Below, in pieces: positions 19,469 to 55,758 of a DNA stretch of 64,000 nt. Position 1 is the first letter of the stretch; each line of letters begins with the position of its first letter. The stretch lies in IMG/VR virus record IMGVR_UViG_3300027714_002832, one strand, 5' to 3'. The stretch comes from a virus. A model generated the notes under the pieces. The model ran no database searches. It had not been told where the DNA came from and saw only the letters and a list, made by a program, of their open reading frames with translations. Both the position numbers and the translations under genes were made by a program.

Positions 19469-19503
19469 GGAAGACAGTGAGTAGTATATAAGGGAGAACG
19501 ATC

Positions 19504-28865: not shown

Positions 28866-29930
28866 ATGTTAAAAAGTTTCTTTGGAACTAAAGAAAGCGC
28901 AGTATATGCATGGGTAATGCTTGCATTCTTGTTAGTTATTACTTGGTACAATGTACAAATATTAGTAGCATACAACTTGTGGAACAAAGAGTTCTATGAT
29001 TCAATTCAAACTCTTCAACAAGAAAGATTTTGGCAACTACTATGGGGATTTGATATGATCAGATTTACCGAGTTGCTAACATTAAAAGAAGACACCGTAC
29101 CATCATTCTTGGAAATTATAATCCTATATACACCAATGGCTACATACGTTATATGGCAGACACAGAGATATACATTCAGATGGCGTGAAGCGAATACACA
29201 TCACTATCTTAAACGATGGGAGAAATCTACCGCTAAGATAGAAGGTGGTTCACAGCGTATTCAAGAAGATTTAATGGTATTCGGTAAAACATTACAAGGT
29301 CTATTCACTGGATTCTTTAGTGCAATACTTGTATTATTTGCATTCTTACCTATCTTATGGGAATTATCAGAAGGTCTACCAGTTTGGAATGGTCAAATCA
29401 TTCCAGGATTCTTAGTGTGGGTAGCACTGACTATCTCAATCGGTGGCACATTGATCTCATTCATATTGGGTATGAAATTGCCTGGACTAGAATACAATAA
29501 CCAAGTGGTAGAAGCAAAATTCAGAAAGAAATTAGTTCATTCAGAAGATGATATAACGCAGCGTGTAACTGATGATTTATTTCCAATGTTCGCAGCAGTC
29601 AAGAAAAACTATTATCGCTTATTTAACTGGTATATGGGCTTTGGTGTATGGTCAACTGCATTCGGTTTAGCAGCGGGCAATATCGCAATCGTGGTATTAG
29701 CACCAAGTTACTTTGAGCAGTTAATCACATTAGGTGTTCTATTCCAAGTACTTAACGCATTTGGTAGAGTAGAAGGTTCAATGACATTCTTTATTGATAG
29801 ATGGACAACGATTGTTGACTTCCAATCAGTGATTAAACGATTGCGTGAATTCAACAAAGTATTGGATGAAGCAGAATTAAATCCTACACCACCAGTAAAG
29901 AAGAAACGAGCATATCGTAAGAAAGCATAA
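28866..29930 (+). CDS. SbmA/BacA-family inner-membrane peptide transporter homologue
   Basis: MLKSFF start, NLWNKEFYDSIQ, KIEGGSQRIQEDLMVF, LPGLEYNNQVVEAKFRKKLVHSEDD, VKKNYYRLFNWYMGF, VLNAFGRVEGS blocks colinear with E. coli SbmA. Confidence 0.75.
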   Translation: MLKSFFGTKESAVYAWVMLAFLLVITWYNVQILVAYNLWNKEFYDSIQTLQQERFWQLLWGFDMIRFTELLTLKEDTVPSFLEIIILYTPMATYVIWQTQRYTFRWREANTHHYLKRWEKSTAKIEGGSQRIQEDLMVFGKTLQGLFTGFFSAILVLFAFLPILWELSEGLPVWNGQIIPGFLVWVALTISIGGTLISFILGMKLPGLEYNNQVVEAKFRKKLVHSEDDITQRVTDDLFPMFAAVKKNYYRLFNWYMGFGVWSTAFGLAAGNIAIVVLAPSYFEQLITLGVLFQVLNAFGRVEGSMTFFIDRWTTIVDFQSVIKRLREFNKVLDEAELNPTPPVKKKRAYRKKA

Positions 29931-37614: not shown

Positions 37615-37643
37615 TTGACAAGTAACTCATATTGTTATATAAT
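37615..37643 (+). promoter_or_regulatory. conserved phage promoter module
   Basis: ACACTTGACAAGTAAC, 17 nt, TATAAT 37638-37643. Confidence 0.6.
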
Positions 37644-37777: not shown

Positions 37778-38431
37778 ATGAAATTTTTACTTGTATGTTC
37801 ATTTTTGACGTTATTAGGTGCAGCGGCTTACGGTGAATTTGGAATGGCATCAGGAAAATTGCTCGTACCTGCAAAGATTGATTTATCAGAAGATGAGTCT
37901 TGGATAAAGATTCAAGGTCGTTCTGATAGAAAATTCTTTCTGACTAATCCAGAGAAGCATCCCCAAATCTTTTGCCTTGCAAAGAATATATATTTTGAAG
38001 CAGGTATTGATAGTCGCGCTGGCATGTACGCTGTGGCAGATGTAACATTAAATCGTGTAACAGACTCACGATGGGGTAATACAGTATGTGATGTTGTTCA
38101 TCATGGAGCAAAAAAAGAGAGTTGGAAAACAAAGCAAGATCCTACTCTTCCTGATTCATTACGAATATATTATCCTGTTAAGAACAAGTGTGCATTTTCA
38201 TGGTATTGTGACGGCAAGCCAGACACCATCCCTTATGGAAGCACCAACTGGATTAAATCACAACACATAGCATGGGATATTTACATGAATGGTAATTATA
38301 GTGGAATCACAGAAGGATCTACCCACTACCATGCATCGTATGCTACATTCGGACAAGGTGATTGGCGCAAAGATCGTGGCATGCAATTCATAAGTCTTAT
38401 AGGACAGCACATCTTTTATCGGTGGAACTAA
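37778..38431 (+). CDS. secreted cell-wall hydrolase (SleB/CwlJ Hydrolase_2 family)
   Basis: signal peptide MKFLLVCSFLTLLGAAAYG; CLAKNIYFEAG...GMYAVADVTLNRV...WGNTVCDVV blocks. Confidence 0.7.
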   Translation: MKFLLVCSFLTLLGAAAYGEFGMASGKLLVPAKIDLSEDESWIKIQGRSDRKFFLTNPEKHPQIFCLAKNIYFEAGIDSRAGMYAVADVTLNRVTDSRWGNTVCDVVHHGAKKESWKTKQDPTLPDSLRIYYPVKNKCAFSWYCDGKPDTIPYGSTNWIKSQHIAWDIYMNGNYSGITEGSTHYHASYATFGQGDWRKDRGMQFISLIGQHIFYRWN

Positions 38432-38589: not shown

Positions 38590-38907
38590 ATGTTTACTAG
38601 AACATCAACATATACTAACACAACAGGATCATGGACTACCATAGAAGAAGCACTCACAGAAATAGATGCACTATTATCCTCAACAAAAACTGATCAGGAT
38701 CAGATTAAGCTTGATGAGTTAAAGTCTACTAATGACTTGAGTTGGGCTGTGGAAACACTAAGTGAAGATAGAACAACCGTTTCTTGTGTTATAACGGCAA
38801 GTCAACATGCCCTAGATGTGTTTGAAGGATTAACAGCAACTGCTGGCAATATAGAGGCATCTTCAATTCACAAGTATCAGTCTGACTGGACACTAGTGGT
38901 CGAATAA
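38590..38907 (+). CDS. hypothetical protein
   Basis: 105-aa ORF with RBS GGAGAAA. Confidence 0.45.
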   Translation: MFTRTSTYTNTTGSWTTIEEALTEIDALLSSTKTDQDQIKLDELKSTNDLSWAVETLSEDRTTVSCVITASQHALDVFEGLTATAGNIEASSIHKYQSDWTLVVE

Positions 38908-39242
38908 TGACTCAATGGCATGGCGGCAAAGGTGATTTAAGACGCGCTTCTACCTACGGTTCTAAATTTGGTGATAATTATGACAAAATTTGGGGCAAAA
39001 AAGAAGCGACATTTGAGAAGACGAAGTCATCAGTGTCAGATGATGACTTACGTCCAATCGATGGAAGACTTGTCGAAGCAGATGAATGTGTGTGTCATAA
39101 ATGTATTACGGACAATAAATTAATTGATTCTAGTGGATTCTTAATAAGCGTCTCTGGTAGGGTAGTATGCCCAGAGTGCAAATCAACACGATGTGCTCAC
39201 GCACAAGATCATAATAACAAATGTGGTGGTTGGTCACTGTAA
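38907..39242 (+). CDS. hypothetical zinc-ribbon protein
   Basis: CVCHKC...CPECKSTRC; C-terminal codons lie in the 31-bp direct repeat. Confidence 0.45.
   Translation: MTQWHGGKGDLRRASTYGSKFGDNYDKIWGKKEATFEKTKSSVSDDDLRPIDGRLVEADECVCHKCITDNKLIDSSGFLISVSGRVVCPECKSTRCAHAQDHNNKCGGWSL
39208..39238 (+). repeat. 31-bp perfect direct repeat, copy 1
   Basis: ATCATAATAACAAATGTGGTGGTTGGTCACT, identical to 39886-39916. Confidence 0.9.
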
Positions 39243-39287: not shown

Positions 39288-39851
39288 ATGCAAGGAAGAA
39301 CAGAATACACGCACGACAAATTACATGAGACAATTCGATGCCAACGAAATTGGGATTGGGATAATCAAGTAACACCAGAGCATTTAGCAATTCTTGATGA
39401 ATATGTAGCAAAGCCTGCGCAACAACAAGGTGAACGAATGTTTAGTGTTGCACGAATTCATAATGATATGGAAAAAATATCTGACATACATGACAATTTA
39501 AACAAAAGTAATACTCAAGTACTGGCCCCTTTGGTGTATATTTGGTTTCCACTTGACGAACACGTCTGGGATCACCACCTTCAAGCAGGGTTTCATGCAG
39601 GAATTATATCTAAATTAGCAAACGAGTTGGGGTATGCTACTGGGTTTTGTGGTTGTGGAGCAAGTGAAAATAGTGAATGGTCTAGTATTACAGAAAAATA
39701 TAACCTAACACCAGTAGAAGATTATAAAAATCCTATTTTTATATTAAGTATAGGACACGGAAAACCTGATACTCCATACAACAAAGACCATCTTGAAAAT
39801 TTTATTCATACGCACCATCGATATGATCACGCACCAGTAAAAACAGTATAA
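39288..39851 (+). CDS. hypothetical protein (bracketed by 31-bp direct repeats)
   Basis: 187-aa ORF with RBS. Confidence 0.5.
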   Translation: MQGRTEYTHDKLHETIRCQRNWDWDNQVTPEHLAILDEYVAKPAQQQGERMFSVARIHNDMEKISDIHDNLNKSNTQVLAPLVYIWFPLDEHVWDHHLQAGFHAGIISKLANELGYATGFCGCGASENSEWSSITEKYNLTPVEDYKNPIFILSIGHGKPDTPYNKDHLENFIHTHHRYDHAPVKTV

Positions 39852-39885: not shown

Positions 39886-39916
39886 ATCATAATAACAAAT
39901 GTGGTGGTTGGTCACT
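39886..39916 (+). repeat. 31-bp perfect direct repeat, copy 2
   Basis: identical to 39208-39238. Confidence 0.9.
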
Positions 39917-39970
39917 TTAAGATAAGTGGTCGACGATTCACAAAATTCGCAGTTACTAATGGAGATTAAA

Positions 39971-41185
39971 ATGTCGAATCCAACATATATGGATTATTCA
40001 TCAACGACCCCAGTAGATCCACAGGTCGCCAAAAAAATGGCAGATTGTTTAACAATGGAAGGCAACTTTGGCAATCCTGCATCACGTTCACATACGTACG
40101 GATGGGAAGCAGAAGCAGCCGTTGATAAAGCACGTAAACAAGTAGCAGATTTGATTGGAGCAGATACACGAGAGATTGTATGGACATCAGGCGCAACTGA
40201 ATCAAACAATCTAGCACTTAAAGGCATTGCTCAGTTTTATGCAAAACGTGGTAAGCATATTATTACGTTACGAACAGAACATAAAGCAATACTAGATACT
40301 TGTCGTCAACTAGAACGAGAAGGGTTTGAAGTAACTTACTTAGACCCAATGCCCAACGGTTTACTAGACATTGAAGTGTTTAAAAATACAATCAGAGAAG
40401 ACACCATTTTAGCATCATTTATGCATGTTAATAATGAGATTGGTGTTATACAAGACTTACACGCCATTGGTGATATCTGTAGAGAACATAAAGTATTCTT
40501 CCATGTTGACGCTGCTCAATCAGTAGGCAAAATGCCAATTGACTTAGCAACGCTCCCAGTAGATTTAATGAGTTTTTCCGCACATAAGATATACGGACCT
40601 AAAGGCATGGGTGCATTGTATGTATCACGTAAACCTAGAGTTCGTCTTGAAGCACAAATGCATGGTGGTGGACACGAACGCGGTATGCGATCTGGTACAT
40701 TAGCAACACATCAAATTGTTGGAATGGGTGAAGCATTTGCTATTGCACAAGAAATGATGGCAGAGGAAGAAGTTAGAACACGCGCACTCAGAGATAGGTT
40801 ATACGCGGGATTCTCAGATATGGAAGAAGTAGTAGTCAATGGTGATTTTGAACAGCGTATTGGCAGCAACTTAAATATCAGTTTCAATTACGTAGAGGGT
40901 GAATCTCTATTAATGGCAATCTCTAATATTGCAGTATCTTCTGGTTCTGCATGTACATCTGCAAGTCTTGAACCATCATACGTTCTTAGAGCGTTAGGAC
41001 TTAGTGACGAATTAGCACACAGTTCAATTCGATTTAGTGTTGGTCGTTATACAACAGAAAAAGATGTAGATGATGCAATTATTCTAGTACGACAGAAAGT
41101 AGAAAAATTAAGAGACTTATCACCATTATGGGACATGTACAAAGATGGTGTTGATTTAAGTACGGTACAATGGGCTGCTCACTAA
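39971..41185 (+). CDS. iscS: cysteine desulfurase IscS/NifS
   Basis: start set at [16 protein letters not shown] (RBS GGAGA); PLP Lys block [16 protein letters not shown]; active-site SSGSACTS. Confidence 0.9.
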
Positions 41186-41228
41186 TAAGCAACCCTAAAT
41201 AATAGTAAATTAACTAAGGAATATAATT

Positions 41229-41612
41229 ATGGCATACTCAGAAAAAGTGCTAGATCATTACGAAAACCCACGCAACGTAGGTAAGATGGATGAATCTGAT
41301 GAAAATGTAGGTACAGGAATGGTAGGTGCACCAGCATGTGGTGACGTAATGCGTCTACAAATCAAGGTTAGCGATGAAGGCATCATTGAAGATGCTAAGT
41401 TCAAAACCTATGGGTGTGGTTCTGCAATTGCATCAAGTTCATTGGTGACAGAAATATTAAAAGGTATGGATTTAGACGAAGCAGTTTCTATTTCTAATAG
41501 TGAAATTGCACAAGAACTTGCATTACCACCTGTTAAAATTCACTGTTCTGTATTAGCAGAAGACGCTATCAAAGCAGCAGTCGCAGATTATAAAGAAAAG
41601 CACGCCATCTAA
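41229..41612 (+). CDS. iscU: Fe-S cluster scaffold IscU/NifU
   Basis: YENPRNVG, GAPACGDVM, KTYGCGSAIASSS, LPPVKIHCS motifs. Confidence 0.9.
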   Translation: MAYSEKVLDHYENPRNVGKMDESDENVGTGMVGAPACGDVMRLQIKVSDEGIIEDAKFKTYGCGSAIASSSLVTEILKGMDLDEAVSISNSEIAQELALPPVKIHCSVLAEDAIKAAVADYKEKHAI

Positions 41613-41908
41613 TGTGGGACATCATACAAAGCATGTCATCAGATAGACTCTGGATATGGACTGCATTGGCTGGTAGTATTTTCGGTGCATTGTTTATAGC
41701 ATGGATTACTGATACTCGTGTCGCTCTATGGACTTATGGTAAATGGTCTACATTACTAAATTATCTAGTAACTAAATGGGGTTGGACATGGTTTCAAGAA
41801 GATCCCAATGCATGGAAAAAACTAAACCCTAACCTATCTAATAAGATAGTTGATCTAGAATCTCGCATTATCGAACTAGAAAACAAAAAAACATTAGAGG
41901 ACAAGTAA
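41612..41908 (+). CDS. hypothetical membrane protein
   Basis: 98 aa, 1 TM helix, ATGTGG overlap. Confidence 0.4.
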   Translation: MWDIIQSMSSDRLWIWTALAGSIFGALFIAWITDTRVALWTYGKWSTLLNYLVTKWGWTWFQEDPNAWKKLNPNLSNKIVDLESRIIELENKKTLEDK

Positions 41909-42691
41909 TTGGCAACCACATATGAAACTGTGTTAGAAGTAATTCATTACACAGACGAATTATTTTATTTCAAAACAACACGTAATCCAGGATTCAGATT
42001 TAAAGATGGTGAATTCGTTATGATGGGTTTAGATCATTTCTCAGAAAAACTTCAAAAGAATAAACCTATATTGAGAGCATACAGTATTGCTTCTCCATCG
42101 TACGCTGAATACTTAGAATTCTATAGTATCAAAGTACAAGATGGTCCGTTAACAAGTAAATTACAGCATGTTAAAGTAGGTGACAAAATCCTAGTAGGTA
42201 CTAAACCAACTGGTACATTAGTCCCAGATAATGTCAAGCCAGGTCGTAATCTATATATGTTAAGTTCGGGCACTGGCGTAGCACCATTTATGGGGTTAGC
42301 ACGTAGTCTTGATATTTACGACAACTATGATAATGTAATATTGGTACACGGTACTAGAAAGATCGAAGATTTAGTTTGGAAAGATATGTGGTTAGGTCTT
42401 AACGAACACGAATTGTATGGTGAGTTAGTGCAGAATAAATTCCATTATTACGCAACGGTTTCTCGTGAAGAATATGAGAATGAAGGCAGAGTAACTACCG
42501 CACTATTCGATCATTCGATAGAAGACAAGTTACAGTTACCACATCTTGATTCTGAATTCGATAGAGTTATGATTTGCGGGTCTATTCCATTCAATGAGGA
42601 TTTACAAAATCATCTACTTGAAAAAGGATTCGTTGAAGGTAACATGAGTGATCCAGGCACATTCGTAGTAGAACGTGCATTCGTAGGATAA
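41909..42691 (+). CDS. ferredoxin/flavodoxin-NADP(+) reductase (Fpr-like)
   Basis: FAD-binding RAYSIASP, NAD-binding LYMLSSGTGVAPF blocks of plant-type FNR family. Confidence 0.75.
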   Translation: MATTYETVLEVIHYTDELFYFKTTRNPGFRFKDGEFVMMGLDHFSEKLQKNKPILRAYSIASPSYAEYLEFYSIKVQDGPLTSKLQHVKVGDKILVGTKPTGTLVPDNVKPGRNLYMLSSGTGVAPFMGLARSLDIYDNYDNVILVHGTRKIEDLVWKDMWLGLNEHELYGELVQNKFHYYATVSREEYENEGRVTTALFDHSIEDKLQLPHLDSEFDRVMICGSIPFNEDLQNHLLEKGFVEGNMSDPGTFVVERAFVG

Positions 42692-42695
42692 CAAT

Positions 42696-42720
42696 AGCCC
42701 AGTTTAACTGGGCTTTTTTA
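42696..42720. terminator. bidirectional rho-independent terminator between convergent genes
   Basis: AGCCCAGTT-TAA-CTGGGCT hairpin flanked by A and T runs. Confidence 0.75.
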
Positions 42721-43524
42721 TTTGCGTTGTTTAATCTTTTCAATATAATTAGTACTTAGGTGATCATAAATCCCATCAAAAAATTGAAACTTACTCCATG
42801 CTTTAAATGTACCTTTTACTTTATCAACAAATCGTTGCCACCAAGTAAGATCAGTTAATATTTTAAAATCATAAGTTATATAATTTAACTGTCCAACATG
42901 ACGATAATATCCTAATATCGGAACTTGTGGTATAATGTCATTATTGTTTACGAAGCGATATGCTTCTATGTTATCAAACTGTACACCCCATTCCTTATTG
43001 CCTGTTCTTGGGCATCCATATGTATACAATACCAAATCTGCGTCTAATTTAGCCACCCTACTTGCAAGGATAGTTGCCATTGCAGCACCTAGACTATGTC
43101 CTGTTATAACAAGTTTTTTAGTGGTTACTCGCTTACCTAACCATTTAATAATTGATGGGTATAACTTATCAATTTCTGTTTTAAATCCATAGTGTACATA
43201 ACCAACTGTTTCACTATCGGATGGCCATGCTTTAATGTCTGCTAACATATCTTTTGCTTGTGTTGGCTCGGTTCCTCGTAATGCTATAACTATATAGTCT
43301 GGCATAACAATACCATATCCTTGTGCACTATCGTTTGTAAAAAACTTGATACTAGAATATTTTATATTATTATCTTTTAAGTATGCAGACATTCTTGCTT
43401 TATCATAATATGCTTCATCGCATAAATGTGCACATAATTCTGCAATTTTCCAATCTACTTCTTTATTTTGTGGCATGTAATATCTCCAATTATGTATATA
43501 TTTAGTCAAATAAAGTGTTGACAA
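42718..43524 (-). CDS. class-3 lipase (alpha/beta hydrolase)
   Basis: nucleophile elbow ITGHSLGAAMATILA, Lipase_3-like context. Confidence 0.7.
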   Translation of the reverse strand: MSTLYLTKYIHNWRYYMPQNKEVDWKIAELCAHLCDEAYYDKARMSAYLKDNNIKYSSIKFFTNDSAQGYGIVMPDYIVIALRGTEPTQAKDMLADIKAWPSDSETVGYVHYGFKTEIDKLYPSIIKWLGKRVTTKKLVITGHSLGAAMATILASRVAKLDADLVLYTYGCPRTGNKEWGVQFDNIEAYRFVNNNDIIPQVPILGYYRHVGQLNYITYDFKILTDLTWWQRFVDKVKGTFKAWSKFQFFDGIYDHLSTNYIEKIKQRK

Positions 43525-45946: not shown

Positions 45947-46661
45947 AGATCAAGTAATTAAATCAAATTGGTTTGATAAATTTCATATCGGCAATGACAA
46001 ACCCGGCACTTATCACTTTCGTGAAGAAGGAGAAAAACGTGTCTGGGAATCAAATAAAATAGAAGCAACTAAATTAGGATGGAGTGAACACAATGTTACG
46101 TACAATATTAACGAACATGGTTATAGAGGCGCAATTGAACCAGGAGTGGGTGTTGCTGCCGCTTTCGGTTGTAGTTTTACATTTGGTTCAAGCGTAGACG
46201 AAAATCAACATTGGCCCTATATATTAGACATTGCAAACTGTGGTCAACCCGGCAGTTCTAATGACAAAATTGCACGACTCGCAATTAGTTATATAAATAC
46301 TTTTAAGCCTACTGATATCTATGTCTGCTGGACATTTCCACAACGTAGAGAATGGGTAGATGAAAAAGGCAATGTGATTGCATTTAAGAATGTAACACCC
46401 GTAGAAGCCTCTCAAATGTTATCACAAACTTGGGTAAGTTGGGATAACGCACTATTGTATCTTAGTAATGATTTGTGGGATGAATATAATTATATCAAGA
46501 ACATAATGCTACTAGAAGGTGTTTGTTCTATGAATAATATCAAATTACACCAAACAAGTGTATTAGATATGAACCACACACAATACCCATACGGAAGGGA
46601 TTTAACCCATCCAGGACCTGATTGGCATGTTATCATCGCAGAACAATTTCTCAATAATTAA
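45936..46661 (+). CDS. SGNH/GDSL-like hydrolase candidate (paralogue 3)
   Basis: AAFGCSFTFGSS block I-like, C-terminal DLTHPGPDWH (DxxH) aligning with DTLHLTPLGY of ORF 19912. Confidence 0.4.
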   Translation: MMNKDQVIKSNWFDKFHIGNDKPGTYHFREEGEKRVWESNKIEATKLGWSEHNVTYNINEHGYRGAIEPGVGVAAAFGCSFTFGSSVDENQHWPYILDIANCGQPGSSNDKIARLAISYINTFKPTDIYVCWTFPQRREWVDEKGNVIAFKNVTPVEASQMLSQTWVSWDNALLYLSNDLWDEYNYIKNIMLLEGVCSMNNIKLHQTSVLDMNHTQYPYGRDLTHPGPDWHVIIAEQFLNN

Positions 46662-47310
46662 TAACTGGTTTAATAACCATATCTCATTAGGTGGCAGTGT
46701 TCATATAGTACATGACACTGTTTCACTTATCGGTTCGCCCAAACCATATCTAACTGATATCTATGATAGATTCTCAAAACTAACATTCGAAGATGTAGAG
46801 CATTTCATGGGCTCTCGTATCTTAGACAATTCAATGCCCAATCGTGCATTGATCGAAGATGCAACTAAGTTGTATTATCTAGAAGAACAAATCAAACAAG
46901 ACAAACTAATATTCAAACCGCAACTATTACACGAACCTTGGGCAGATAGATATCGTGTTCATCCTGGTTCGGGTCGTATCGCAGCAATGTGGAAATGTGA
47001 TCCCATAAAACCTATAGAAAGCATCTATATTCACTTCAATGAAGACATATTTACTATCCCTCAGAATAGCACCGAAGTGAGGTCCTCAGAGGCTTTCTTA
47101 GACGCAATCACGTATAAGGCGACTAATAGCATAGATTGTACAGTGGAAACAGCGTTAAAACGTACGGAACGAGACACCGAATGGAATCCAACAATAGTAA
47201 GTACCGTAAATTGGGAATTCATTCGTTATAGTGAAGGGAAATATTTCTTGGAATATAAGCAAGCATGGCGTGACTACGCACTCGACTTATGGTTACTACT
47301 TAATCGCTAG
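46627..47310 (+). CDS. hypothetical protein
   Basis: 227-aa ORF. Confidence 0.45.
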   Translation: MLSSQNNFSIINNWFNNHISLGGSVHIVHDTVSLIGSPKPYLTDIYDRFSKLTFEDVEHFMGSRILDNSMPNRALIEDATKLYYLEEQIKQDKLIFKPQLLHEPWADRYRVHPGSGRIAAMWKCDPIKPIESIYIHFNEDIFTIPQNSTEVRSSEAFLDAITYKATNSIDCTVETALKRTERDTEWNPTIVSTVNWEFIRYSEGKYFLEYKQAWRDYALDLWLLLNR

Positions 47311-48000
47311 ATTAGATCTAACCCAGTCATGCATTTCAGGCGTGTTATGCGCATTGATAACTAACCAATAACTATCTTTAGTACTTGCATTAAATAATGC
47401 ATGCTCTAATGTAGTGTTCACTGCATATAGTTGGCCCATTTCAAAATAAAGCGGCTTATCTTCTAACATAAATCTAAACCACGGATTTGTAGTATTAGAT
47501 AACGCCATTATTAATCTAAACGTATCCACATTTTCACCACGACTATCTCGATGTGGTGGGAAATAACCGCCTGGCGATACTCTCAATATATGCGTTCTAC
47601 CACATAAATGTAATATATCACCAAGTAACTCTTTCATTGAAGTGAGATCATACACAGGGGTAGTTTTATCAAAATCTTTTTCACTGTAATCTGTATTATA
47701 TTTTCTATTCCATTCATACAGACTATTCAATGCGGGACCAGATTGATTTAAACCACTTTCATTTATTACACATAGACCGTCTCGCTTAATATGTGGTTTA
47801 AATTCATTGTATTGTTCCCATTTATCGTCAAACTGTGATAGTTCTTCCATAAATCTGCTAGTATTAATACTCTTATCTAATAAGATTTGATTTCCTAAAT
47901 TAAAAATTACAGACATATAACTATTCCTTAAAAGATTTATCGCCGGGAAACAATGGTAATTGTGTACCTGGCGCACGCTTAGGTATCTTACTATCTGCAC
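47296..48000 (-). CDS. cupin / 2OG-Fe(II)-oxygenase-like protein (candidate)
   Basis: GGYFPPHRDSRGE (HxD) and downstream LEHALFN His; first gene of minus-strand island. Confidence 0.4.
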   Translation of the reverse strand: MQIVRYLSVRQVHNYHCFPAINLLRNSYMSVIFNLGNQILLDKSINTSRFMEELSQFDDKWEQYNEFKPHIKRDGLCVINESGLNQSGPALNSLYEWNRKYNTDYSEKDFDKTTPVYDLTSMKELLGDILHLCGRTHILRVSPGGYFPPHRDSRGENVDTFRLIMALSNTTNPWFRFMLEDKPLYFEMGQLYAVNTTLEHALFNASTKDSYWLVINAHNTPEMHDWVRSNLAIK

Positions 48001-49090
48001 TACTCACGCACGCATTAGTCGTACATACTGTGGGTGCATCAAATAACTTGAAACCTGTTTCTATATTTCCTAACGGCTGATCTACGCAACTATAACTACG
48101 CTTCACACTACCATCTGGTTCTCTGATAATAATACTACGATGACCAGATGAACATTCCCAGCCCTTGAATTTATTAAAACCAAATGCGTTGAATCGTTCA
48201 GCCTGATCCATGAACCAATGCTTGTTATCTTTATCCATGAACTCAACTTGAAAATGCTGAGGCACTGTTACATTCTCTTCCCAATACAACGGATCCCCAT
48301 CTTTCTTAAATGTAGGTGTCGGGCGTGTAACCAACTGAGTCTTTTTCGCTTTATCTTCTGTATAACCACGCTGTGGCATACCGTTGTGTAATCGCTCCAT
48401 CTGCTCTGCGGTGTAACCATCTACTATCTTACTAGCAGTAGGATCAGACATAGGCTTTAATGTACAGTTGATTCCCTGATTATGAAAGAATAACGCATTA
48501 TCCCAATCTCGCTCAAACCATTCTGGAACCATCACTTGATTGATAGTTACTTGTACATCATGTTCTTGACAGAATATTAACTTATCAGCAAAGACTTGCA
48601 TCTTTTCTCTAGTGTCTAAATGCTCTGTGTGCAAACTTGCTGTAATACTTGCTCTATGAAATGGTGCGACATTCTTAACATAAGTCTCAAACCACTTCAT
48701 GGGACGTGACATATTAGTTGTCATGTGAACTGATGTGTAATTAGTGTTATCTACATCATCTGCAAGGTGTTTCATTATATCCAAATATCCCGGATGGAAT
48801 GTTGGTTCACCCCCGCTTAAACTAAAGTGAAAACTATTGAAACCATTGTCTCGTGCTTGACGCTTAATCTCGTCAACTGTACGTAAACATAACTCAGTAG
48901 GTCTAAAGTCTTTCTTATCACTACGAGCGTAAGGCCAGCAGTAACTACAACGATAGTTACAATAGCGTCCCAGTAACCAACTAATACTGAATAAATCGCG
49001 ATGAAGCATTGTGCGTTGCCCTACTCTTACTAAATCATCAAATGGTATTTTAGTAAAATCGTATGTACTGTATTTTAAATCTTCGCTCAT
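47921..49090 (-). CDS. radical SAM enzyme with C-terminal twitch/SPASM-like Cys region
   Basis: CNYRCSYC (Cx3Cx2C); C-terminal WECSSGHRS...SYSCVD...CTTNAC; start set at MSEDLKY (49090) 1 nt after upstream stop; ORF-track start is 49138. Confidence 0.75.
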   Translation of the reverse strand: MSEDLKYSTYDFTKIPFDDLVRVGQRTMLHRDLFSISWLLGRYCNYRCSYCWPYARSDKKDFRPTELCLRTVDEIKRQARDNGFNSFHFSLSGGEPTFHPGYLDIMKHLADDVDNTNYTSVHMTTNMSRPMKWFETYVKNVAPFHRASITASLHTEHLDTREKMQVFADKLIFCQEHDVQVTINQVMVPEWFERDWDNALFFHNQGINCTLKPMSDPTASKIVDGYTAEQMERLHNGMPQRGYTEDKAKKTQLVTRPTPTFKKDGDPLYWEENVTVPQHFQVEFMDKDNKHWFMDQAERFNAFGFNKFKGWECSSGHRSIIIREPDGSVKRSYSCVDQPLGNIETGFKLFDAPTVCTTNACVSSADSKIPKRAPGTQLPLFPGDKSFKE

Positions 49091-49091
49091 T

Positions 49092-49529
49092 TTAGATGCA
49101 CCATGAAATCTTTTTATCGCCATAATATTCTCTAGCAAAGCCTTCTGCTATGAGCATGTGTCTTAAACTCTTGCCATCTATAATGATATCACCAAGTACT
49201 CGACCACCATACTTGTCCCATTTATAAATGGCTACTTGTATAACCGTTGCTGCATTTAACATATCTTTAGTAAACTGTGACGCTTCTTCACCCCATGCTG
49301 CTTCTTTAGGACATTCTGCTCTCCAACTTTTTTCTGGAGTATCTACACCATATACACGAATACTTAATTCCTGCTTCAATGGTGCTGGTAAAAAGGTAGC
49401 TTCAAATGCAACGGTGTCGCCATCAATCACTCTTGTAATATTATAATCGTAGATGGTCATCTCTACTTCTTTTGCCATTGCTGGCATTGTTGATAGTATT
49501 GCAATTAATAAAATTATAATCGTTCTCAT
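49092..49529 (-). CDS. secreted staphylococcal-nuclease (SNase)-like nuclease
   Basis: signal peptide MRTIIILLIAILSTMPAMA; VIDGDTVAF...RVYGVDTPE SNase catalytic blocks. Confidence 0.6.
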   Translation of the reverse strand: MRTIIILLIAILSTMPAMAKEVEMTIYDYNITRVIDGDTVAFEATFLPAPLKQELSIRVYGVDTPEKSWRAECPKEAAWGEEASQFTKDMLNAATVIQVAIYKWDKYGGRVLGDIIIDGKSLRHMLIAEGFAREYYGDKKISWCI

Positions 49530-50464
49530 GCTGTCTCTCCGTTAATGTAGTATTTATTATAAAGTATATCGTATGCGTCTACGACCTGTTTGTAACGCCT
49601 ACCATATATCTGTGCTGCTTCTTTTAATATATCACTGTTACTTACACCTAAGTAATCAAGTATAACATCTGTATTTTTAAACCATTCAACGTCTACTACT
49701 AAATGATCAATTTTATCTTCTTCTATATAGGATAATGACTCATTTTGAACAAACACATCTTCGTAATCGTGTTTTTCTTCAAATAGCCTATGGAACGAAT
49801 ACTCAAATTCAAAAATACCATCACCAGTGTTATCGTCTATGTGACTTAGCGATTTCTTCAAATCCCAATGTGCAAAATTTAATTGCCACATATATTTCAA
49901 CTTACCATCGTGAAAATCCTCTATACATTTGTCGTGATAATCTCTATACCAAACTTCTTTCCATTTGCCAATAATATCTCCGTCCATTAGCATGTGATCT
50001 TCCCACCACAACTGCGTTTGTTCAATTATCTCATCTTCTGTTAATTCAATAAATGCATATTGCGTTATATAGAACATTGCACTTTGTTCGGTTGTGACTT
50101 GGGTGAATATGAGTTTGTCAGCAATTGGTGCGAACCTTGAATCATATGTAGCACCGAAATAATTACTCCACACTTTATATTGAAAATCTTCATTAAATTT
50201 AAAATATTCGGAAAGGCAATCAATCCCACCATCTGTTTCTGTTTTATTTTCCATCATTCTAAGCGTTTCTTGATGACTATAATATAAATCTTGATCAATA
50301 AGATGGGTATATCGGTTCTCTTCAACTATGGTTCCAATTGCTAGTCGTTCAGGTGTTGGCTTTAATCCAGAATAGATTTGAGGACCAAATCTATGATCTT
50401 GTGCAAGCCACCAATGAATCGCAGGTGCATGTGCATTTACTACTTGATATATTCCGATGTTCAT
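49526..50464 (-). CDS. hypothetical protein
   Basis: 312 aa, acidic, Trp/Tyr-rich, no motif recognised. Confidence 0.5.
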   Translation of the reverse strand: MNIGIYQVVNAHAPAIHWWLAQDHRFGPQIYSGLKPTPERLAIGTIVEENRYTHLIDQDLYYSHQETLRMMENKTETDGGIDCLSEYFKFNEDFQYKVWSNYFGATYDSRFAPIADKLIFTQVTTEQSAMFYITQYAFIELTEDEIIEQTQLWWEDHMLMDGDIIGKWKEVWYRDYHDKCIEDFHDGKLKYMWQLNFAHWDLKKSLSHIDDNTGDGIFEFEYSFHRLFEEKHDYEDVFVQNESLSYIEEDKIDHLVVDVEWFKNTDVILDYLGVSNSDILKEAAQIYGRRYKQVVDAYDILYNKYYINGETA

Positions 50465-50580
50465 AGTGCAAGGTAATTAGGCATAGCCATGATAGGCGAT
50501 GATGTTAAAATTATAGCCAATGTGACTGTCGCCACTTTAGCCAATAGCACTACTGCTTGCTTAATATATATTTTCATAAT
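50461..50580 (-). CDS. small hydrophobic peptide (39 aa)
   Basis: MKIYIKQAVVLLAKVATVTLAIILTSSPIMAMPNYLAL; below ORF-track cutoff. Confidence 0.25.
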   Translation of the reverse strand: MMKIYIKQAVVLLAKVATVTLAIILTSSPIMAMPNYLAL

Positions 50581-50586
50581 TATTCC

Positions 50587-51237
50587 TTAATTTTTTGAAC
50601 GGTTAATCCATTCTTCATCTGTCACCTGTATAGGATCAATACTTAATTCATTCAATGACAAATGTTCAGGCAATATCATCGCATATTCAATACAATCAAC
50701 CGCTTCTTCAAATGTCATCAACTTGCGTCCTGGATGCTTGTCTGCGTTATTCGGCAATGTACCAAACGTAACATAACTCACCTTTGGGCCACCTTGCCAG
50801 ATACTTTTCAATCCCATAGCGTTACTCGCACTACGTAATGCTTTCTTCTCTTGTTGATATGTCCAATCCGACCCTTTTGTTGCCCTGTCCGTGGTGGACC
50901 CGACAGACACTATATGTAGGGATTTCCGGGCACTCTGTGCGGTTTTATATACTACATCTAGTAGCAGTGCCTGATGGTACTGCCATAGTGCACTACAGTT
51001 AATAAAAATGTCGTATTCTAGTGCTTTATTTGCAACAGTTTTTTTCACATGATTCAATGTTAGATCATGGTCACTGATGCTTTGACTAATAAAATCTGTC
51101 TGTGGATATCGTTTTAATATCTCACTCGCTAGACCAATCTCTGGATTACCTGTACATAATATTTTCTTATTAGTTAAATCAATCACTTTACTTTCCTTTT
51201 TACTACTGGACGCAACGTCCATATTTCTTTTGTACAT
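50587..51237 (-). CDS. short-chain dehydrogenase/reductase-like NAD(P)-binding protein
   Basis: ILCTGNPEIGLA Rossmann turn, INCSAL (NNAG-like), YQQEK (YxxxK). Confidence 0.45.
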   Translation of the reverse strand: MYKRNMDVASSSKKESKVIDLTNKKILCTGNPEIGLASEILKRYPQTDFISQSISDHDLTLNHVKKTVANKALEYDIFINCSALWQYHQALLLDVVYKTAQSARKSLHIVSVGSTTDRATKGSDWTYQQEKKALRSASNAMGLKSIWQGGPKVSYVTFGTLPNNADKHPGRKLMTFEEAVDCIEYAMILPEHLSLNELSIDPIQVTDEEWINRSKN

Positions 51238-51288
51238 CGGTGTGGCATATCGTCAACGTAGGTACCACAATATGGGCATAGAATCTGA

Positions 51289-52551
51289 TTAGTTATTGTC
51301 ATTGATTTGTCCTTTAAATTCTGGACATGATTCTACTAACGTACCACGTTGCAATTCATCCATCTTCAAATTATAATCAATAAATTCTTGCCAGTGTTCA
51401 GCATGTGTATTCCCAGCATTTAAATACTTAATCACATCGTCTACCTTAGGCCATGCTTTATGACTTTTTAAATTATACAATGCCAACGTCTTTAAATGAT
51501 GTGGCAATACTTGTATATTCATACTACGCGGATGGTTTAATATATTGAAATATAACTGATCATGTTCTAATCCACGTGATTCCGCAAACTCGATAACCTC
51601 GTGTAGTGCACATACATTCAATGCTTGTACCGTACAATGAATCTGAATATATACATTATCCAATTTAGATAATTCATCAAAATTCTTTTCTACTATATGC
51701 CAATGACTAGGGTAACGAATATATCTGTCACGCGCACCAATTGCATCAATTGAGCAATTTAATTGTACACGCTTGAAATGTGACCAATATTCGATCATCT
51801 TCGGTGGCACATTAGTTAGGTTGGTGTTGTACTTTAAACGAATGCCCGATGCAAGATCATTTTCAATACAATAGTCTAACAACTTATATTGACTAACTGC
51901 CAATGTAGGCTCACCACCAGTTAAATAAATTTCTTCAACCGTATGAGCAATTTCAGTGAATGTAATACCTGTCTTTTCCCAATCTGGCCATTCAGTCATG
52001 GTATTCATGAATTCTAATGTGTCTTCATCCAATTTCTTTGGTGGATCTAAATATGCTGCATCAACTACTTTATTCCAATCTTTAACCCACATGCTACTTG
52101 CCCACGGATTACACATGCGACATTTTAGGTTACATAAGTTACCCAAACGTAAGTCAACATATTTCACATCAACTGGAATTTCAACATCTATCTTCACATC
52201 TTCTTTCAGCCACTTTTCATTAAATCCTGCTCGCGCACTACGAATGCCAGCATCTTCTTCTCTGAAACAACGCGCACACATATCTGGTCGCTCACCATCG
52301 ATGAACTGTTTTCTGATAGTTGTATAGGTTGGGCTATTCCATACTTCATCTAAATCATGCTTGTAGATTTTATATGGCTTGCCATTCTCTTGTAATATTG
52401 TGTTCTCACCGGGCGTGCTATTACAGCATACTCGATAAGATCCCGCAGCATTAGTTGCTACGTGCATAAAGGGTAAAACACAGAACGTGTCACTTACTTT
52501 TTTTGTCATTTGTTTAAATCCATTTTGTATAATCTTTGCCATCACTATCAT
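51289..52551 (-). CDS. radical SAM enzyme with N-terminal twitch-like Cys motif
   Basis: N-term CVLPFMHVATNAAGSYRVCCNS ... CARCF then CNLKCRMC (Cx3Cx2C). Confidence 0.8.
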   Translation of the reverse strand: MIVMAKIIQNGFKQMTKKVSDTFCVLPFMHVATNAAGSYRVCCNSTPGENTILQENGKPYKIYKHDLDEVWNSPTYTTIRKQFIDGERPDMCARCFREEDAGIRSARAGFNEKWLKEDVKIDVEIPVDVKYVDLRLGNLCNLKCRMCNPWASSMWVKDWNKVVDAAYLDPPKKLDEDTLEFMNTMTEWPDWEKTGITFTEIAHTVEEIYLTGGEPTLAVSQYKLLDYCIENDLASGIRLKYNTNLTNVPPKMIEYWSHFKRVQLNCSIDAIGARDRYIRYPSHWHIVEKNFDELSKLDNVYIQIHCTVQALNVCALHEVIEFAESRGLEHDQLYFNILNHPRSMNIQVLPHHLKTLALYNLKSHKAWPKVDDVIKYLNAGNTHAEHWQEFIDYNLKMDELQRGTLVESCPEFKGQINDNN

Positions 52552-53446
52552 CTAGTATCATTACATGATCAATCAATTGTTGTTTATTATCTTGATCATC
52601 CAATGCACCCGGAGCCATGTATGCGGGACTAATCAAATCACTCGCTCTATTGAAGTGAATATCGTGACTTGTCGCCCAATCATTCACTTCGTGAATGTTA
52701 TTAATATTTAGTACACTTGGTAAACACGTAATACATATACTCGTATTATCAGGTGAACTCTTGTGTATGTCAATGATATTATTACTTACTTGTTCCCAGT
52801 TTGCTCCTCGTCTAAGGTATTCAAAACGCTCACCTATGGCATCTACACTTGCAACTATTATAACACGTTTAAACGATTCGAACAAGGGATAATATGCATT
52901 AATATCTATTGTTCCATTAGTAATGAATTGTAATTCAATCGTAGATGAAACGTCTGCATCGATCAGATATTTAATTATCTTCTTTACTTGTGGTATCATG
53001 AATGGTTCACCACCTGTAAATTTAAGAATCTTTGCAAAATGCAATTGTGGGTATATCTGCTCAATATCTTTGTGCCAACCTGTATTTGCTTTGCGCTTAC
53101 CAGTTTTTACTGCCCACGAACTTGAACTATAACTATCACATGAGACGCACGTGAGATTACACGTGTTGTTAATCTTTAAGTCCCATTGCTCTGTGCCAAT
53201 GCTATCTGCTAGTACATCATTCATATACATTCGATAACTCTTACCATTTGATTCTTCATCTTGTTGGCACTCTATGCATTCAGGCAACCAACCTCGCAAT
53301 GACTCAACATAGTATTTGTTGTGCAACGATTCCCAATCATCGGTAATTGCAACACCAGATGATGCCGCATTCCAAGCACAGCATGGTCTAACTTCGCCTG
53401 TTACGCCTATCGTTACTGCATGTTTAAACGCCAAGCATTTTGGCAT
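52514..53446 (-). CDS. radical SAM enzyme with N-terminal twitch-like Cys motif
   Basis: N-term CLAFKHAVTIGVTGEVRPCCAW ... CIEC then CNLTCVSC. Confidence 0.8.
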   Translation of the reverse strand: MPKCLAFKHAVTIGVTGEVRPCCAWNAASSGVAITDDWESLHNKYYVESLRGWLPECIECQQDEESNGKSYRMYMNDVLADSIGTEQWDLKINNTCNLTCVSCDSYSSSSWAVKTGKRKANTGWHKDIEQIYPQLHFAKILKFTGGEPFMIPQVKKIIKYLIDADVSSTIELQFITNGTIDINAYYPLFESFKRVIIVASVDAIGERFEYLRRGANWEQVSNNIIDIHKSSPDNTSICITCLPSVLNINNIHEVNDWATSHDIHFNRASDLISPAYMAPGALDDQDNKQQLIDHVMILDDSDGKDYTKWI

Positions 53447-54179
53447 AGCCGCGATTCACCTGTTGTTTAAATTCATCACTAGGACCACCATCAAAGATCA
53501 TATGTATCCTTGGTTCTTCACTTTTATTCCATACAGAATGCTTATATCCTGTATTCAATTTCATCACTGAACCTGCTTCAAATGGAACAATACCCATACC
53601 TTCAAATACGAATTCGCATCCATCTGGATTGTTTAATGCTACATTAGTTGCACCTACTCCAACTGGATTAGGTCTATCGTTGTGAATGCCCAACCAACCA
53701 TCTGGTAACAGTGCCATGAACCTTACACGAGCAAACTGGTTGTACAACATTTCATCTTGCATCCATTGTACTGTTTTAGGGCAAAATTTAGCAATATCAG
53801 TCCAGTCACTATGGGTTTCTTCATAATCATCTGGTAAGTTATAATCTTCTGCACAATTAGTATGTACACTGCTTATTCCATGAATCGACAAACTCAACCA
53901 CCCCGAACTACAAGGACGGTGTGCAGTAAAGCATGACGTATATAACAAATGATTTGCTTCTTCAAACAAATCCTTGTGTGGTACATTAATTTCTGGTATC
54001 GATATATATGGAAAACGGGTATTGTCCATGATGTAATCAACATCGTGCTCACTTTCTTCTAAAAAATTCCCTGCATCTAATATTTTAAAATCAGGTTTAA
54101 TAATTCTATTTTCTTCATGCCATATAATTGATTCATCATCAATTTCTTCCCTATCTAAAGGTGATCCTTCAAACCACAT
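53424..54179 (-). CDS. aspartyl/asparaginyl beta-hydroxylase-like cupin oxygenase (candidate)
   Basis: WLGIHNDRPNP (HxD) and YKHSVWN (distal His) in a beta-rich C-terminal half. Confidence 0.45.
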   Translation of the reverse strand: MWFEGSPLDREEIDDESIIWHEENRIIKPDFKILDAGNFLEESEHDVDYIMDNTRFPYISIPEINVPHKDLFEEANHLLYTSCFTAHRPCSSGWLSLSIHGISSVHTNCAEDYNLPDDYEETHSDWTDIAKFCPKTVQWMQDEMLYNQFARVRFMALLPDGWLGIHNDRPNPVGVGATNVALNNPDGCEFVFEGMGIVPFEAGSVMKLNTGYKHSVWNKSEEPRIHMIFDGGPSDEFKQQVNRGYAKMLGV

Positions 54180-54189
54180 AATTTATCTC

Positions 54190-55749
54190 CTATTGTTCAA
54201 ATGTTAATGTTTCATTATTGGTTGTACTTATAATAGCCCTTGATGGACATGTTAAGTCGTTATCGTTTATATCAGTGCCCGAAAACCAACAATCATCATG
54301 CAATTCATTTAATTTAGTTATTAAACTAATGAAACTCAATTCCATTGCAAACGGTTTACTAAGCATCTTTGGCACAATATAACTATAGATATTAGATGTC
54401 CACATCAATGTTCTTTTATTTTCTACTGCTTCAAATAATTTATCATGTCCATATATTAAATCACATTCAATTACTTCCCAGTTGCTCTGTCTGATTCTAT
54501 CCCATACTGATAACCAATTAGTATCTCCATCAAATTGCTGTATTACGTTAGGCCATCTCTCAACAGTCAAGTCTCTTAAATTTCCATTTGCATCTGGATG
54601 CTGTTCAATCCATGCATCGACAAACTCAGGATAGTTTATACCATTCCATTGTTCTAGCATATCTCGTTTAAATTTACAACTCAATGGATCAAAATCATAT
54701 AACACAAATTTCGTGTCTTTTGTAAAACCATACTTGTATGCATAGTAGAATAATTTAAAGCCCGCAGTGGCACCGACATATTGATCAAATACCGTTCCTT
54801 CAATTTGTTCTGCAATACCAGGCTGACTAGATTCTGTATTTACAAAATATATAGGACTATCTGGTGCGAACATCTCTCTTATCATTCGATTTGCTTGAAA
54901 TGTTAGTTTATCACTGTCAAACGGTAAACCTTGTATAGCCTTCTCAAATTCAATTGAACCAACATGCGGCTTCATCGTGGCTAAACAATTCATAAAATCT
55001 GCACTCAATCCTGGGACAATTAGTTCTTGTCGCAATGACCATGTCAATAACGGATTGCACAATTTATGATGGTATTGTTCATTAAATTCTTCGTGTGTTA
55101 TCCACGGATTCCATGTAGCATGTTTGATATTTAATCGTGCAGCGCCTAGTTTTACAATACCAAATAAACTATCCTCAAAATCTTCAACTATTCCTTGTTT
55201 TCTAGTAACCCAATTGTCACTTGGCTTTTCATGTCGTGTACCTTGACGAGAATACCGATCTGCGGGATCTTGATTGTATAATACATCAGCGGGATCTTGT
55301 GCACCTTGCTCATACCACGTATCTAAATTAATCAGTATGATGTTTCTTTCAAAATGAGAATATCTTTCATCATCGGTTTGTAATATATTTCCTGCAACTA
55401 TCCATTTAGTGATATCAAATTCTTCATTAATACGATTTATTTCATCAAGTAATTTTAAGTTAACATCATCAGATGCTGACCAAGTGCCGTCAAACCACAT
55501 ACATACATAACGATATCCTAATTTGCGCATAGCGATCATCCAACTAATTTCGGATTGTCCTACAATGTTAACTATGCCTCCACGAAGATGATTATTATGT
55601 TCTACCTCTGCTATTTCACGTAACTTTTGCTTTAATATAGGTGTGTCACTTAATTCAATACTATCAGTGTTATTTGAATTGAATGCGTGAACTATTGGCC
55701 ATGAATTTTCTCCATGATAATAATTCCACAGACTCTGTCCTTTCTTCAT
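54190..55749 (-). CDS. large hypothetical protein (possible Rossmann/methyltransferase-like segment)
   Basis: 519 aa; Gly-rich YVGATAGFKLFYYAYKYG followed by acidic LYDFDPL, weak. Confidence 0.5.
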   Translation of the reverse strand: MKKGQSLWNYYHGENSWPIVHAFNSNNTDSIELSDTPILKQKLREIAEVEHNNHLRGGIVNIVGQSEISWMIAMRKLGYRYVCMWFDGTWSASDDVNLKLLDEINRINEEFDITKWIVAGNILQTDDERYSHFERNIILINLDTWYEQGAQDPADVLYNQDPADRYSRQGTRHEKPSDNWVTRKQGIVEDFEDSLFGIVKLGAARLNIKHATWNPWITHEEFNEQYHHKLCNPLLTWSLRQELIVPGLSADFMNCLATMKPHVGSIEFEKAIQGLPFDSDKLTFQANRMIREMFAPDSPIYFVNTESSQPGIAEQIEGTVFDQYVGATAGFKLFYYAYKYGFTKDTKFVLYDFDPLSCKFKRDMLEQWNGINYPEFVDAWIEQHPDANGNLRDLTVERWPNVIQQFDGDTNWLSVWDRIRQSNWEVIECDLIYGHDKLFEAVENKRTLMWTSNIYSYIVPKMLSKPFAMELSFISLITKLNELHDDCWFSGTDINDNDLTCPSRAIISTTNNETLTFEQ

Positions 55750-55758
55750 TTTTCGTCC

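Follow-up and report, generated by a model that had tools for sequence, protein, structure and literature searches.

Iron-sulfur (Fe-S) cluster assembly genes are among the commonest auxiliary genes of ocean viromes, where they usually occur singly (IscU, A-type carrier, SufE) and their role is still guesswork. What might a phage gain from several of them in a row, and is such a row a captured bacterial operon? We addressed both questions at the iscS-iscU-ORF98-fpr locus (39971–42691, + strand) of IMG/VR virus record IMGVR_UViG_3300027714_002832, of which a stretch of 64,000 nucleotides, the window, was analysed. An earlier reading of the letters without database searches (the sequence-only reading) had described a cysteine desulfurase (IscS), a U-type scaffold (IscU), a 98-residue membrane protein (ORF98) and an Fpr-type ferredoxin-NADP+ reductase (FNR) here, and all four open reading frames (ORFs) are present on the + strand with their coordinates unchanged. 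Our analysis points to a phage-borne chain, from NADPH through Fpr and a 7Fe ferredoxin (FdxA), that together with IscS and IscU probably builds and reduces Fe-S clusters, mainly for the phage's own Fe-S enzymes.

The desulfurase gene (39971–41185, +) has an ATG start, and an alternative GTG at 39926 is also open; the alignment with E. coli IscS begins at residue 2 of the ATG form. Its product scores 733.9 bits against the NCBIfam equivalog NF010611 (cut-off 548) and 719.6 bits against TIGR02006 (cut-off 643.2). It aligns with residues 2–404 of E. coli IscS without a single indel, which places the lysine that binds pyridoxal phosphate (Lys206, in SFSAHK) and the loop of the persulfide-forming Cys328 where they belong. 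By these matches the protein is an IscS-subfamily cysteine desulfurase with intact catalytic residues, so that both the identity and the active-site lysine and cysteine read from the letters hold. The scaffold (41229–41612, +) passes the TIGR01999 cut-off (223.3 bits, cut-off 192.4) and is colinear with E. coli IscU, with Cys37, Asp39, Cys63, LPPVK, His105 and Cys106 all present; its naming as IscU and the three conserved cysteines claimed for it (Cys37, Cys63, Cys106) are thereby borne out.

The reductase (41909–42691, +) starts at a TTG codon preceded by GAGGA. Over its whole length it matches the solved structures 6rr3, 2qdx, 1a8p and 2bgi in the Protein Data Bank (PDB) at E-values of 1e-71 to 1e-78; its translation shows RAYS, GTGVAPF, CGS and a C-terminal ERAFVG (...VVERAFVG), and Pfam NAD_binding_1 is matched at E 1.4e-10. 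The NCBIfam model PRK10926, which we take to be built on the E. coli subclass-II enzyme, gives 104 bits, far under its cut-off of 390, and identity to E. coli-type enzymes is about 30%. No PHROG match was found. Judged by alignment and motifs, the reductase is a full-length subclass-I bacterial Fpr (FprA type) with the two-domain flavin adenine dinucleotide (FAD)/NADP fold, in agreement with its first naming as an Fpr-type FNR. The family occupies 43 IMG/VR loci; its nearest members are 54–92% identical and lie on contigs of up to about 250 kb, and identity to bacterial enzymes is about 50%. On these comparisons it is an old family, widespread in marine phages.

Among phages, the ratio of nonsynonymous to synonymous substitution (dN/dS) is 0.07 for IscS, 0.058 for IscU and 0.075 for Fpr, values of 0.06–0.08 that indicate purifying selection within phages. 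As phage-encoded proteins of apparently cellular origin under selection, the three have the features of viral auxiliary metabolic genes.

The same 64 kb also encodes likely partners and clients. An FdxA-type 7Fe ferredoxin (18268–18633, +) exceeds the FdxA_Protbact equivalog cut-off (150.8 bits, cut-off 135) and carries Fer4 plus DUF3470, and an A-type Fe-S carrier of the ErpA/IscA/SufA family (19504–19905, +) matches PF01521 (E 3e-14) and TIGR00049 (68 bits, cut-off 58.8). Eight genes encode radical S-adenosylmethionine (radical-SAM) proteins: six in a cluster on the minus strand (47921–60754), of which five are N-terminal-twitch paralogs that pass the cut-off, and two on the + strand (1309–2334 and 16049–17083). 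The presence of eight radical-SAM genes, FdxA and an A-type carrier in one window supports phage Fe-S enzymes as the clients.

We propose that the region is the distal part of an early operon, transcribed by host RNA polymerase from a promoter near 37615 to a terminator at 42696, that would add Fe-S cluster building and reducing capacity to the infected cell. IscS would pass sulfur from cysteine, as persulfide, to the IscU scaffold. With NADPH, Fpr would reduce a small electron carrier, most likely the phage 7Fe FdxA, which could then supply electrons for cluster formation on IscS/IscU and also the one-electron reduction that each radical-SAM [4Fe-4S] cluster needs before SAM cleavage. The phage A-type carrier and host HscAB chaperones would deliver the clusters, with the eight radical-SAM enzymes and FdxA itself as the main clients. 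E. coli reduces its radical-SAM clusters physiologically through Fpr together with flavodoxin or ferredoxin. Delivery of electrons to IscS/IscU by ferredoxin, NADPH and FNR has been described (PMC4547094). Conjectural in this scheme are its expression early in infection, the partnership of Fpr with FdxA and the view of the radical-SAM enzymes as clients.

Gene neighbourhoods in other phages are consistent with it. In dereplicated phage neighbourhoods, a radical-SAM, IscU, IscS or carrier gene lies within 10 kb in 16 of 20 FNR neighbourhoods and in 12 of 41 controls (Fisher p = 3e-4), where the controls are anchored on ORF98, FdxA is excluded and shared ancestry is uncorrected. A radical-SAM gene or IscS directly adjoins FNR at three viral loci (L008, L015, L020; loci are cited by such numbers where needed).

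Several observations weigh on the other side. The association emerges only with FdxA excluded and after dereplication, with phylogeny uncorrected; when FdxA is counted, Fe-S genes lie within 10 kb of 76% of FNR loci and 73% of controls, no difference, because FdxA is syntenic with the ORF98 on which the controls are anchored. A motif scan of the window ORFs found no [2Fe-2S] isc ferredoxin, the usual partner of IscS/IscU, so that the 7Fe FdxA would have to stand in for it. FdxA and the carrier belong to other transcription units, 20 kb from the locus, and the promoter and terminator of the proposed operon are consensus matches only. Finally, the general roles of Fpr in oxidative stress and NADPH balance would explain its presence without any link to isc genes.

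Those general roles lead to a different reading, in which the locus is a host-maintenance module: Fe-S repair and NADPH/ferredoxin balance would sustain host metabolism (respiration, sulfur oxidation, nucleotide synthesis) and counter oxidative damage, with no particular tie to radical-SAM enzymes. Bacterial Fpr belongs to oxidative-stress regulons, and the sigma-70 consensus promoter in front of the unit suggests early expression. Virome studies have read viral Fe-S assembly genes in this way (PMC8940887, PMC5332604), and P. aeruginosa fprB is tied to stress protection (PMC4521836). The phage's own client load is nevertheless unusually large: the 64 kb encode eight radical-SAM enzymes as well as a 7Fe ferredoxin, and radical-SAM and Fe-S genes are over-represented around FNR in other phages. 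We therefore regard host maintenance as the main purpose as unlikely, although a service to phage enzymes and one to the host are compatible with each other.

A further explanation separates IscS from its neighbours: its main task would be to donate sulfur for the thio-modification of nucleic acids of phage or host (tRNA s2U/s4U, DNA phosphorothioation as with DndA, or thio-cofactors), next to a functionally separate IscU and Fpr. In Gammaproteobacteria IscS serves as the general donor of sulfur, tRNA genes are present in the phage, and in several relatives (L213, L215, L020) IscS is not next to IscU. Host IscS-dependent tRNA thiolation is reported to affect phage lambda (PMC3296357). The phage protein also reaches 430 bits against the DndA model, but this falls under the DndA cut-off of 480, whereas the IscS equivalog cut-off is exceeded. 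IscS moreover adjoins IscU here and in L214 and L216, and its neighbours in L215 are partners in Fe-S assembly (FdxA, Nfu-like, DUF59 and carrier genes). No match to the DndBCDE, TusA, ThiI or MnmA families was found among the ORFs scanned near the locus, the window not having been scanned exhaustively. Thio-modification as the principal role thus seems improbable to us. We give as slim a chance to the strongest form of the phage-enzyme proposal, in which the supply line is self-contained and frees the radical-SAM enzymes from host Fe-S and reductant supply, with ORF98 as its membrane organiser. The reading that we prefer is the less exclusive one, a chain serving mainly the phage Fe-S enzymes.

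Was the row of genes acquired as a unit? The sequence-only reading implied a bacterial isc operon with a foreign gene wedged into it, and this picture was not supported by comparison: IscS, IscU and FNR differ in history and their linkage is variable. Against 80 bacterial isc loci, the phage IscS is 86–87% identical to Pseudothioglobus and 72–75% identical to other Gammaproteobacteria; a neighbour-joining tree unites the phage IscS sequences (bootstrap 97), with Pseudothioglobus as their sister group (98), both inside the Thioglobaceae (100). IscU is 76–77% identical to Pseudothioglobus IscU and up to 86% identical to Oceanospirillales-type sequences, with which it groups in a neighbour-joining tree of this short protein computed without bootstrap. 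With IscS sister to Pseudothioglobus and IscU Oceanospirillales-like, iscS and iscU do not appear to have one shared history. We propose a Pseudothioglobus-like donor (SUP05 group) for IscS, acquired later than Fpr and IscU; the affinity of IscS also suggests a host in the Pseudothioglobus/SUP05 group for this phage.

The arrangement of the genes varies correspondingly among viral relatives. A close relative with an FNR 92% identical to that of the window (L132/L002) has the order p111, IscU, ORF98, a 245-residue gene and FNR, with neither IscS nor p187 (p111 and p187 are two genes that precede iscS in the window). FNR adjoins IscS in L020, IscS adjoins IscU in L214 and L216, and IscS is not beside IscU in L213, L215 and L020. 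In L215 it lies within a DUF59/FdxA/Nfu-like ... phosphoribosyltransferase/carrier block that is syntenic with window positions 18268–19905. All three of IscS, IscU and FNR are adjacent in IMG/VR only in the window's own lineage (L001, L022/L212), in keeping with the rarity that had been claimed for the trio. The locus is thus, as we propose from these comparisons, not one captured bacterial operon but an assembly made in the phage lineage from an old phage Fpr, an Oceanospirillales-like IscU and a later IscS.

At the DNA level, neither the locus nor the window as a whole matched any of 50,697 phage records, and none of these records proved to be a genuine phage record with this IscS or this FNR. 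Protein matches to IscS or FNR in records such as Acinetobacter 'phage MD-2021a' and Listeria and Staphylococcus fragments were left uncounted; they are mostly fragmentary or mislabelled and resemble host DNA. PHROGs already holds IscS-like and NifU-like families.

The DNA just upstream of iscS carries a trace of rearrangement. The last 35 nucleotides of p111, a gene for a small Cys-rich protein (38907–39242, +), form one copy of a direct repeat (39208–39242, +, encoding NNKCGGWSL-stop); the other copy (39886–39920, +) is a non-coding remnant of the p111 3′ end immediately before iscS. The copies are 34/35 identical at a spacing of 678 nucleotides and bracket p187 (39288–39851, +). The repeat is found nowhere beyond the window's own lineage, which argues for a local scar and not a widespread element, and we take it to mark a recombination event. 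At a second junction, L001 has an FNR and a lipase 100% identical to those of the window and an ORF98 only 84% identical, from which a recombination breakpoint at the ORF98/FNR junction may be placed. The ORF98 of L001 (1110–1562) is lengthened to 150 residues by a C-terminal Cys-rich domain (CPxC..RCxHAxDH..C) that resembles the p111 C-terminus.

The bracketed gene p187 has no match in Pfam, NCBIfam or PHROGs. Its AlphaFold (AF2) model (predicted local distance difference test, pLDDT, 61; predicted template-modelling score, pTM, 0.67) was compared with the PDB by Foldseek, and all of the top 50 matches are nitroreductases dependent on flavin mononucleotide (FMN), at E-values of about 1e-6. 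We therefore predict that p187 is a divergent protein of the nitroreductase (FMN oxidoreductase) fold. It belongs to an orphan viral family of 10 clusters with invariant Cys18, Cys121 and Cys123, and a homolog in another phage (L219–L221, 6001–6585) lies in an operon headed by a radical-SAM gene.

What, then, is ORF98 (41612–41908, +)? It has one transmembrane (TM) helix, a Trp-rich WGWTWF..DPxAW..NP core and a C-terminal helix. A single hydrophobic 19-mer exceeds 1.6 (residues 13–33, Kyte-Doolittle 1.77), and 10 of the 98 residues are Trp. The homology search that had been suggested for it turned up a large viral family with no match to a named one: at least 177 protein clusters on at least 584 viral-contig stretches, with 13 invariant residues (L13, W14, T17, G21, G25, A26, W40, K44, G57, W58, W60, W68, P73) and a dN/dS among phages of 0.08–0.24, which again indicates purifying selection. 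Nothing matched in phage records (tblastn, E up to 1), Pfam, NCBIfam, PHROGs, PADLOC or PDB sequences. The AF2 model (pLDDT 63.5) is too uncertain to justify a fold search. ORF98 is absent from all 80 bacterial isc loci examined, so the statement that it lacks a counterpart in bacterial isc operons stands; the special isc role that this had seemed to imply does not, since the gene is conserved and common among phages and occurs in a range of unrelated contexts.

These contexts follow two patterns among 86 loci. In one, an endolysin, a small Cys-rich protein, a TM-plus-coiled-coil protein and a lipoprotein lie upstream, with 2-TM proteins, DnaJ, peptide deformylase and ClpB downstream; in the other, DNA polymerase B lies downstream. 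The slots flanking ORF98 hold many unrelated genes, for example lipase, IscU and FNR. We read ORF98 as a common phage backbone gene beside variable-cargo slots and not as a new isc component. In L203, two different IscU copies (7994–8422 and 9592–9960; 56% and 79% identical to the window IscU) both sit between a lipoprotein gene and ORF98.

Alternatively, ORF98 could contribute to the module itself, perhaps by tethering it to the membrane or as a partner that delivers iron to, or organises, IscU and Fpr. It appears translationally coupled on both sides, overlapping iscU by 1 nucleotide (TAATG) and ending 0 nucleotides before the start of fpr. IscU is directly upstream of ORF98 in an independent lineage (L203/L206), and FNR lies 1–3 genes downstream in L176, L188, L209 and L211, where ORF98 is only 49–55% identical. 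Such recurrence in distant lineages keeps a functional tie conceivable. Most of 80 further viral ORF98 loci, however, have neither Isc genes nor FNR within 10 kb (IscU in 8, FNR in 5), and conversely, among 29 other FNR loci that are 12 kb or longer, none has ORF98 within 10 kb. ORF98 is usually found beside genes for endolysin, spanin-like and holin-like proteins, DnaJ/peptide deformylase/ClpB or DNA polymerase; many unrelated cargo genes occupy the slots on both sides, and the protein lacks Cys or His ligands as well as a known fold. From this distribution a functional tie of ORF98 to IscU/Fpr is unlikely, and a tether or delivery role in particular very improbable.

The neighbours in relatives prompted us to consider ORF98 as an i-spanin, holin or antiholin, as it often lies between endolysin/spanin-like and 2-TM holin-like genes and in other relatives beside DNA polymerase. 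The charge around its TM helix is uninformative (−1/+1), the window contains no homologs of its spanin-like or holin-like neighbour families, and its context is variable; for these reasons it is left as a conserved phage membrane protein.

The transcription unit seems to be longer than first drawn. The sequence-only reading let the operon start at iscS, and this is not supported: the 119-nucleotide gap preceding iscS has no promoter-like site on the + strand, and the nearest strong promoter is a perfect sigma-70 consensus (TTGACA-N17-TATAAT) at 37615–37643 (+), with no terminator between. The inter-ORF gaps from that promoter to iscS contain no + strand promoter of at least 10/12, a single 10/12 + strand match lies within iscS (40365–40392), and no + strand terminator occurs from the promoter to 42696. 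Judged by these motifs, the unit probably starts upstream of iscS at the 37615–37643 promoter and would comprise a 30-residue membrane peptide, a SleB-type hydrolase, p105, p111, p187, IscS, IscU, ORF98 and Fpr. Its first sizeable gene would be the cell-wall hydrolase (Hydrolase_2/SleB-like; 37778–38431, +; PF07486, E 1.7e-15), which has an N-terminal hydrophobic segment. A homolog of p111 directly precedes IscU in L132/L002. The spacer between iscS and iscU is 43 nucleotides, and co-transcription of iscS-iscU-ORF98-fpr is likewise suggested by the close spacing of the genes and the lack of internal promoter or terminator matches.

The window contains 14 perfect 12/12 TTGACA-N17-TATAAT sites, 13 of them on the + strand, where about 0.05 would be expected by chance on our base-composition estimate. 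They span 841–43754 (+), with one more at 61837–61808 (−), and several have an extended motif in common (TTGACAagtaaG...TATAATagttacataagttaattaa). The set is far above chance and looks like a repeated early-promoter cassette. No late-promoter motif TATAAATA was found near the isc locus.

The unit would end at an intrinsic terminator between the convergent FNR and lipase genes (42696–42719). A hairpin (AGCCCAG-TTTAA-CTGGGCT, 42696–42714) is followed by the tail TTTTTTATTT; its stem of 8 bp includes 5 GC pairs and folds at −17.1 kcal/mol (z = −4.1), and 0 of 200 shuffles fold as well. The identical hairpin occurs in the relative L132 despite diverged flanking genes. On these properties it is a good intrinsic terminator for the + strand. 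The hairpin had been called bidirectional: its + strand half is borne out by the folding energy, whereas in the other direction the scan is passed with a weak tail (ATTGTTAT), which leaves termination on the minus strand plausible rather than strong. The class-3 lipase gene (42718–43524, −) is a solitary minus-strand gene, convergent with fpr, whose stop codon overlaps with the T-run of the terminator. In other phages, homologs of the lipase lie directly upstream of ORF98 (L165, L167, L178) or are separated from it by one gene (L163).

The genome around the locus has the character of a large phage. Several IMG/VR viral contigs, 117–192 kb long, match the window identically or are close relatives of it. 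The window encodes several cell-wall hydrolases, and the best match of its clamp loader (53%) is in the Pseudomonas jumbo phage PA5oct. Promoters, tRNA genes, hydrolases, clamp loader and contig relatives together point to a large uncultured marine myovirus-type phage. Three tRNA genes (919–1230, +; two tRNA-Ala(TGC), one tRNA-Thr(TGT)) lie just downstream of the perfect promoter at 841. The block at 17565–19905 (+) runs QueD/PTPS ... FdxA, a 96-residue ORF, phosphoribosyltransferase and A-type carrier; it is syntenic with L215 5311–11125, in which FdxA follows a DUF59/PaaD-like gene and is separated from the phosphoribosyltransferase by an Nfu-like gene, IscS and a 319-residue ORF. An SbmA/BacA-family inner-membrane transporter (28866–29930, +; Pfam E 4e-80) is seemingly unusual for a phage. 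The minus-strand cluster at 47296–60754 also includes two Asp/Asn-hydroxylase-like cupins (that at 47296–48000 with a weak match below the Pfam cut-off), an SNase-like nuclease and an aminotransferase-like ORF (a weak Pfam match below cut-off). GC and AT skew flip sign at about 46000–48000, where gene orientation turns from + to −.

One genome with a sulfur donor, scaffold, carrier, ferredoxin and NADPH reductase beside eight radical-SAM genes makes the question of which enzymes viral Fe-S genes serve a testable one. The IscS tree provides a concrete host hypothesis, the Pseudothioglobus/SUP05 group, for uncultured PA5oct-like large marine phages. A bacterial-looking operon that was apparently rebuilt in phage genomes from genes of mixed origin also counsels caution against annotating such clusters as single captures.

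The co-occurrence of IscU and carrier genes with many radical-SAM genes in viruses has been published before, and IscS and Fpr extend that picture. Nishimura et al. 2017 (PMC5332604) described marine T4-like viral genomes with IscU, an A-type carrier or both, together with as many as 12 radical-SAM genes. The phage described here shares with those genomes its large marine myovirus-type character, IscU, the A-type carrier, many radical-SAM genes and a viral IscU that groups with gammaproteobacterial sequences. It differs in adding IscS, Fpr and FdxA, since the main text of that study never mentions 'cysteine desulfurase' or 'ferredoxin', and in an IscS donor that appears to belong to the SUP05 group rather than SAR86. 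We found no description of a phage IscS-IscU-Fpr set in the searchable literature, including the marine jumbo-phage survey PMC9123017, a coverage that leaves out most subscription-journal papers. Within the same coverage we did not find described an IscS and Fpr that give a near-complete chain in one genome, a piecemeal iscS-iscU pairing inside phages, or the SUP05-group affinity of IscS.

The reductase resembles A. vinelandii FPR (1A8P), P. aeruginosa Fpr (2QDX) and the R. capsulatus enzyme (2BGI) over its full length at about 50% identity, and shares with subclass-I FNRs the RxYS and GTGxAP motifs and a C-terminal AFV extension in place of a terminal aromatic residue. Unlike the bacterial subclass-I enzymes it is phage-encoded, and relative to 6rr3 it has six extra residues (positions 44–49). 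A 7Fe FdxA is the partner-type ferredoxin of subclass-I Fpr in Azotobacter and Pseudomonas, and as in those systems one is co-encoded in the window. In P. aeruginosa, fprB is IscR-regulated and required for [4Fe-4S] biogenesis (PMC4521836), so that both systems would couple an FNR functionally to the ISC pathway. The phage enzyme, however, is of the FprA/subclass-I type (2QDX) and not of the second, E. coli-like type, and its coupling would be physical, within one operon, whereas that of fprB is regulatory.

PeSL (promoter/stem-loop) cassettes mediate gene shuffling in T4-type phages. The locus resembles them in its many identical early promoters flanking small cassettes, the repeat scar around p187 and the variable content between anchors; it differs in that the repeat is a duplicated gene end and not a promoter-stem-loop unit.

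With the bacterial ISC operon (iscRSUA-hscBA-fdx-iscX) the phage locus shares iscS followed by iscU across a short spacer, with proteins colinear with those of E. coli. IscR, HscB/HscA, [2Fe-2S] Fdx and IscX are missing at the locus (HscAB were not searched exhaustively, and none of the upstream ORFs p105, p111 and p187 has a family match, to IscR or otherwise). The gene set and the shared iscS/iscU history of a canonical isc operon are thus, as far as alignments and trees can tell, not those of the phage locus. In the phage, ORF98 and Fpr follow iscU and the A-type carrier is 20 kb off; IscS and IscU appear to come from different donor lineages, and the unit stands behind an early-type promoter, together with a cell-wall hydrolase.

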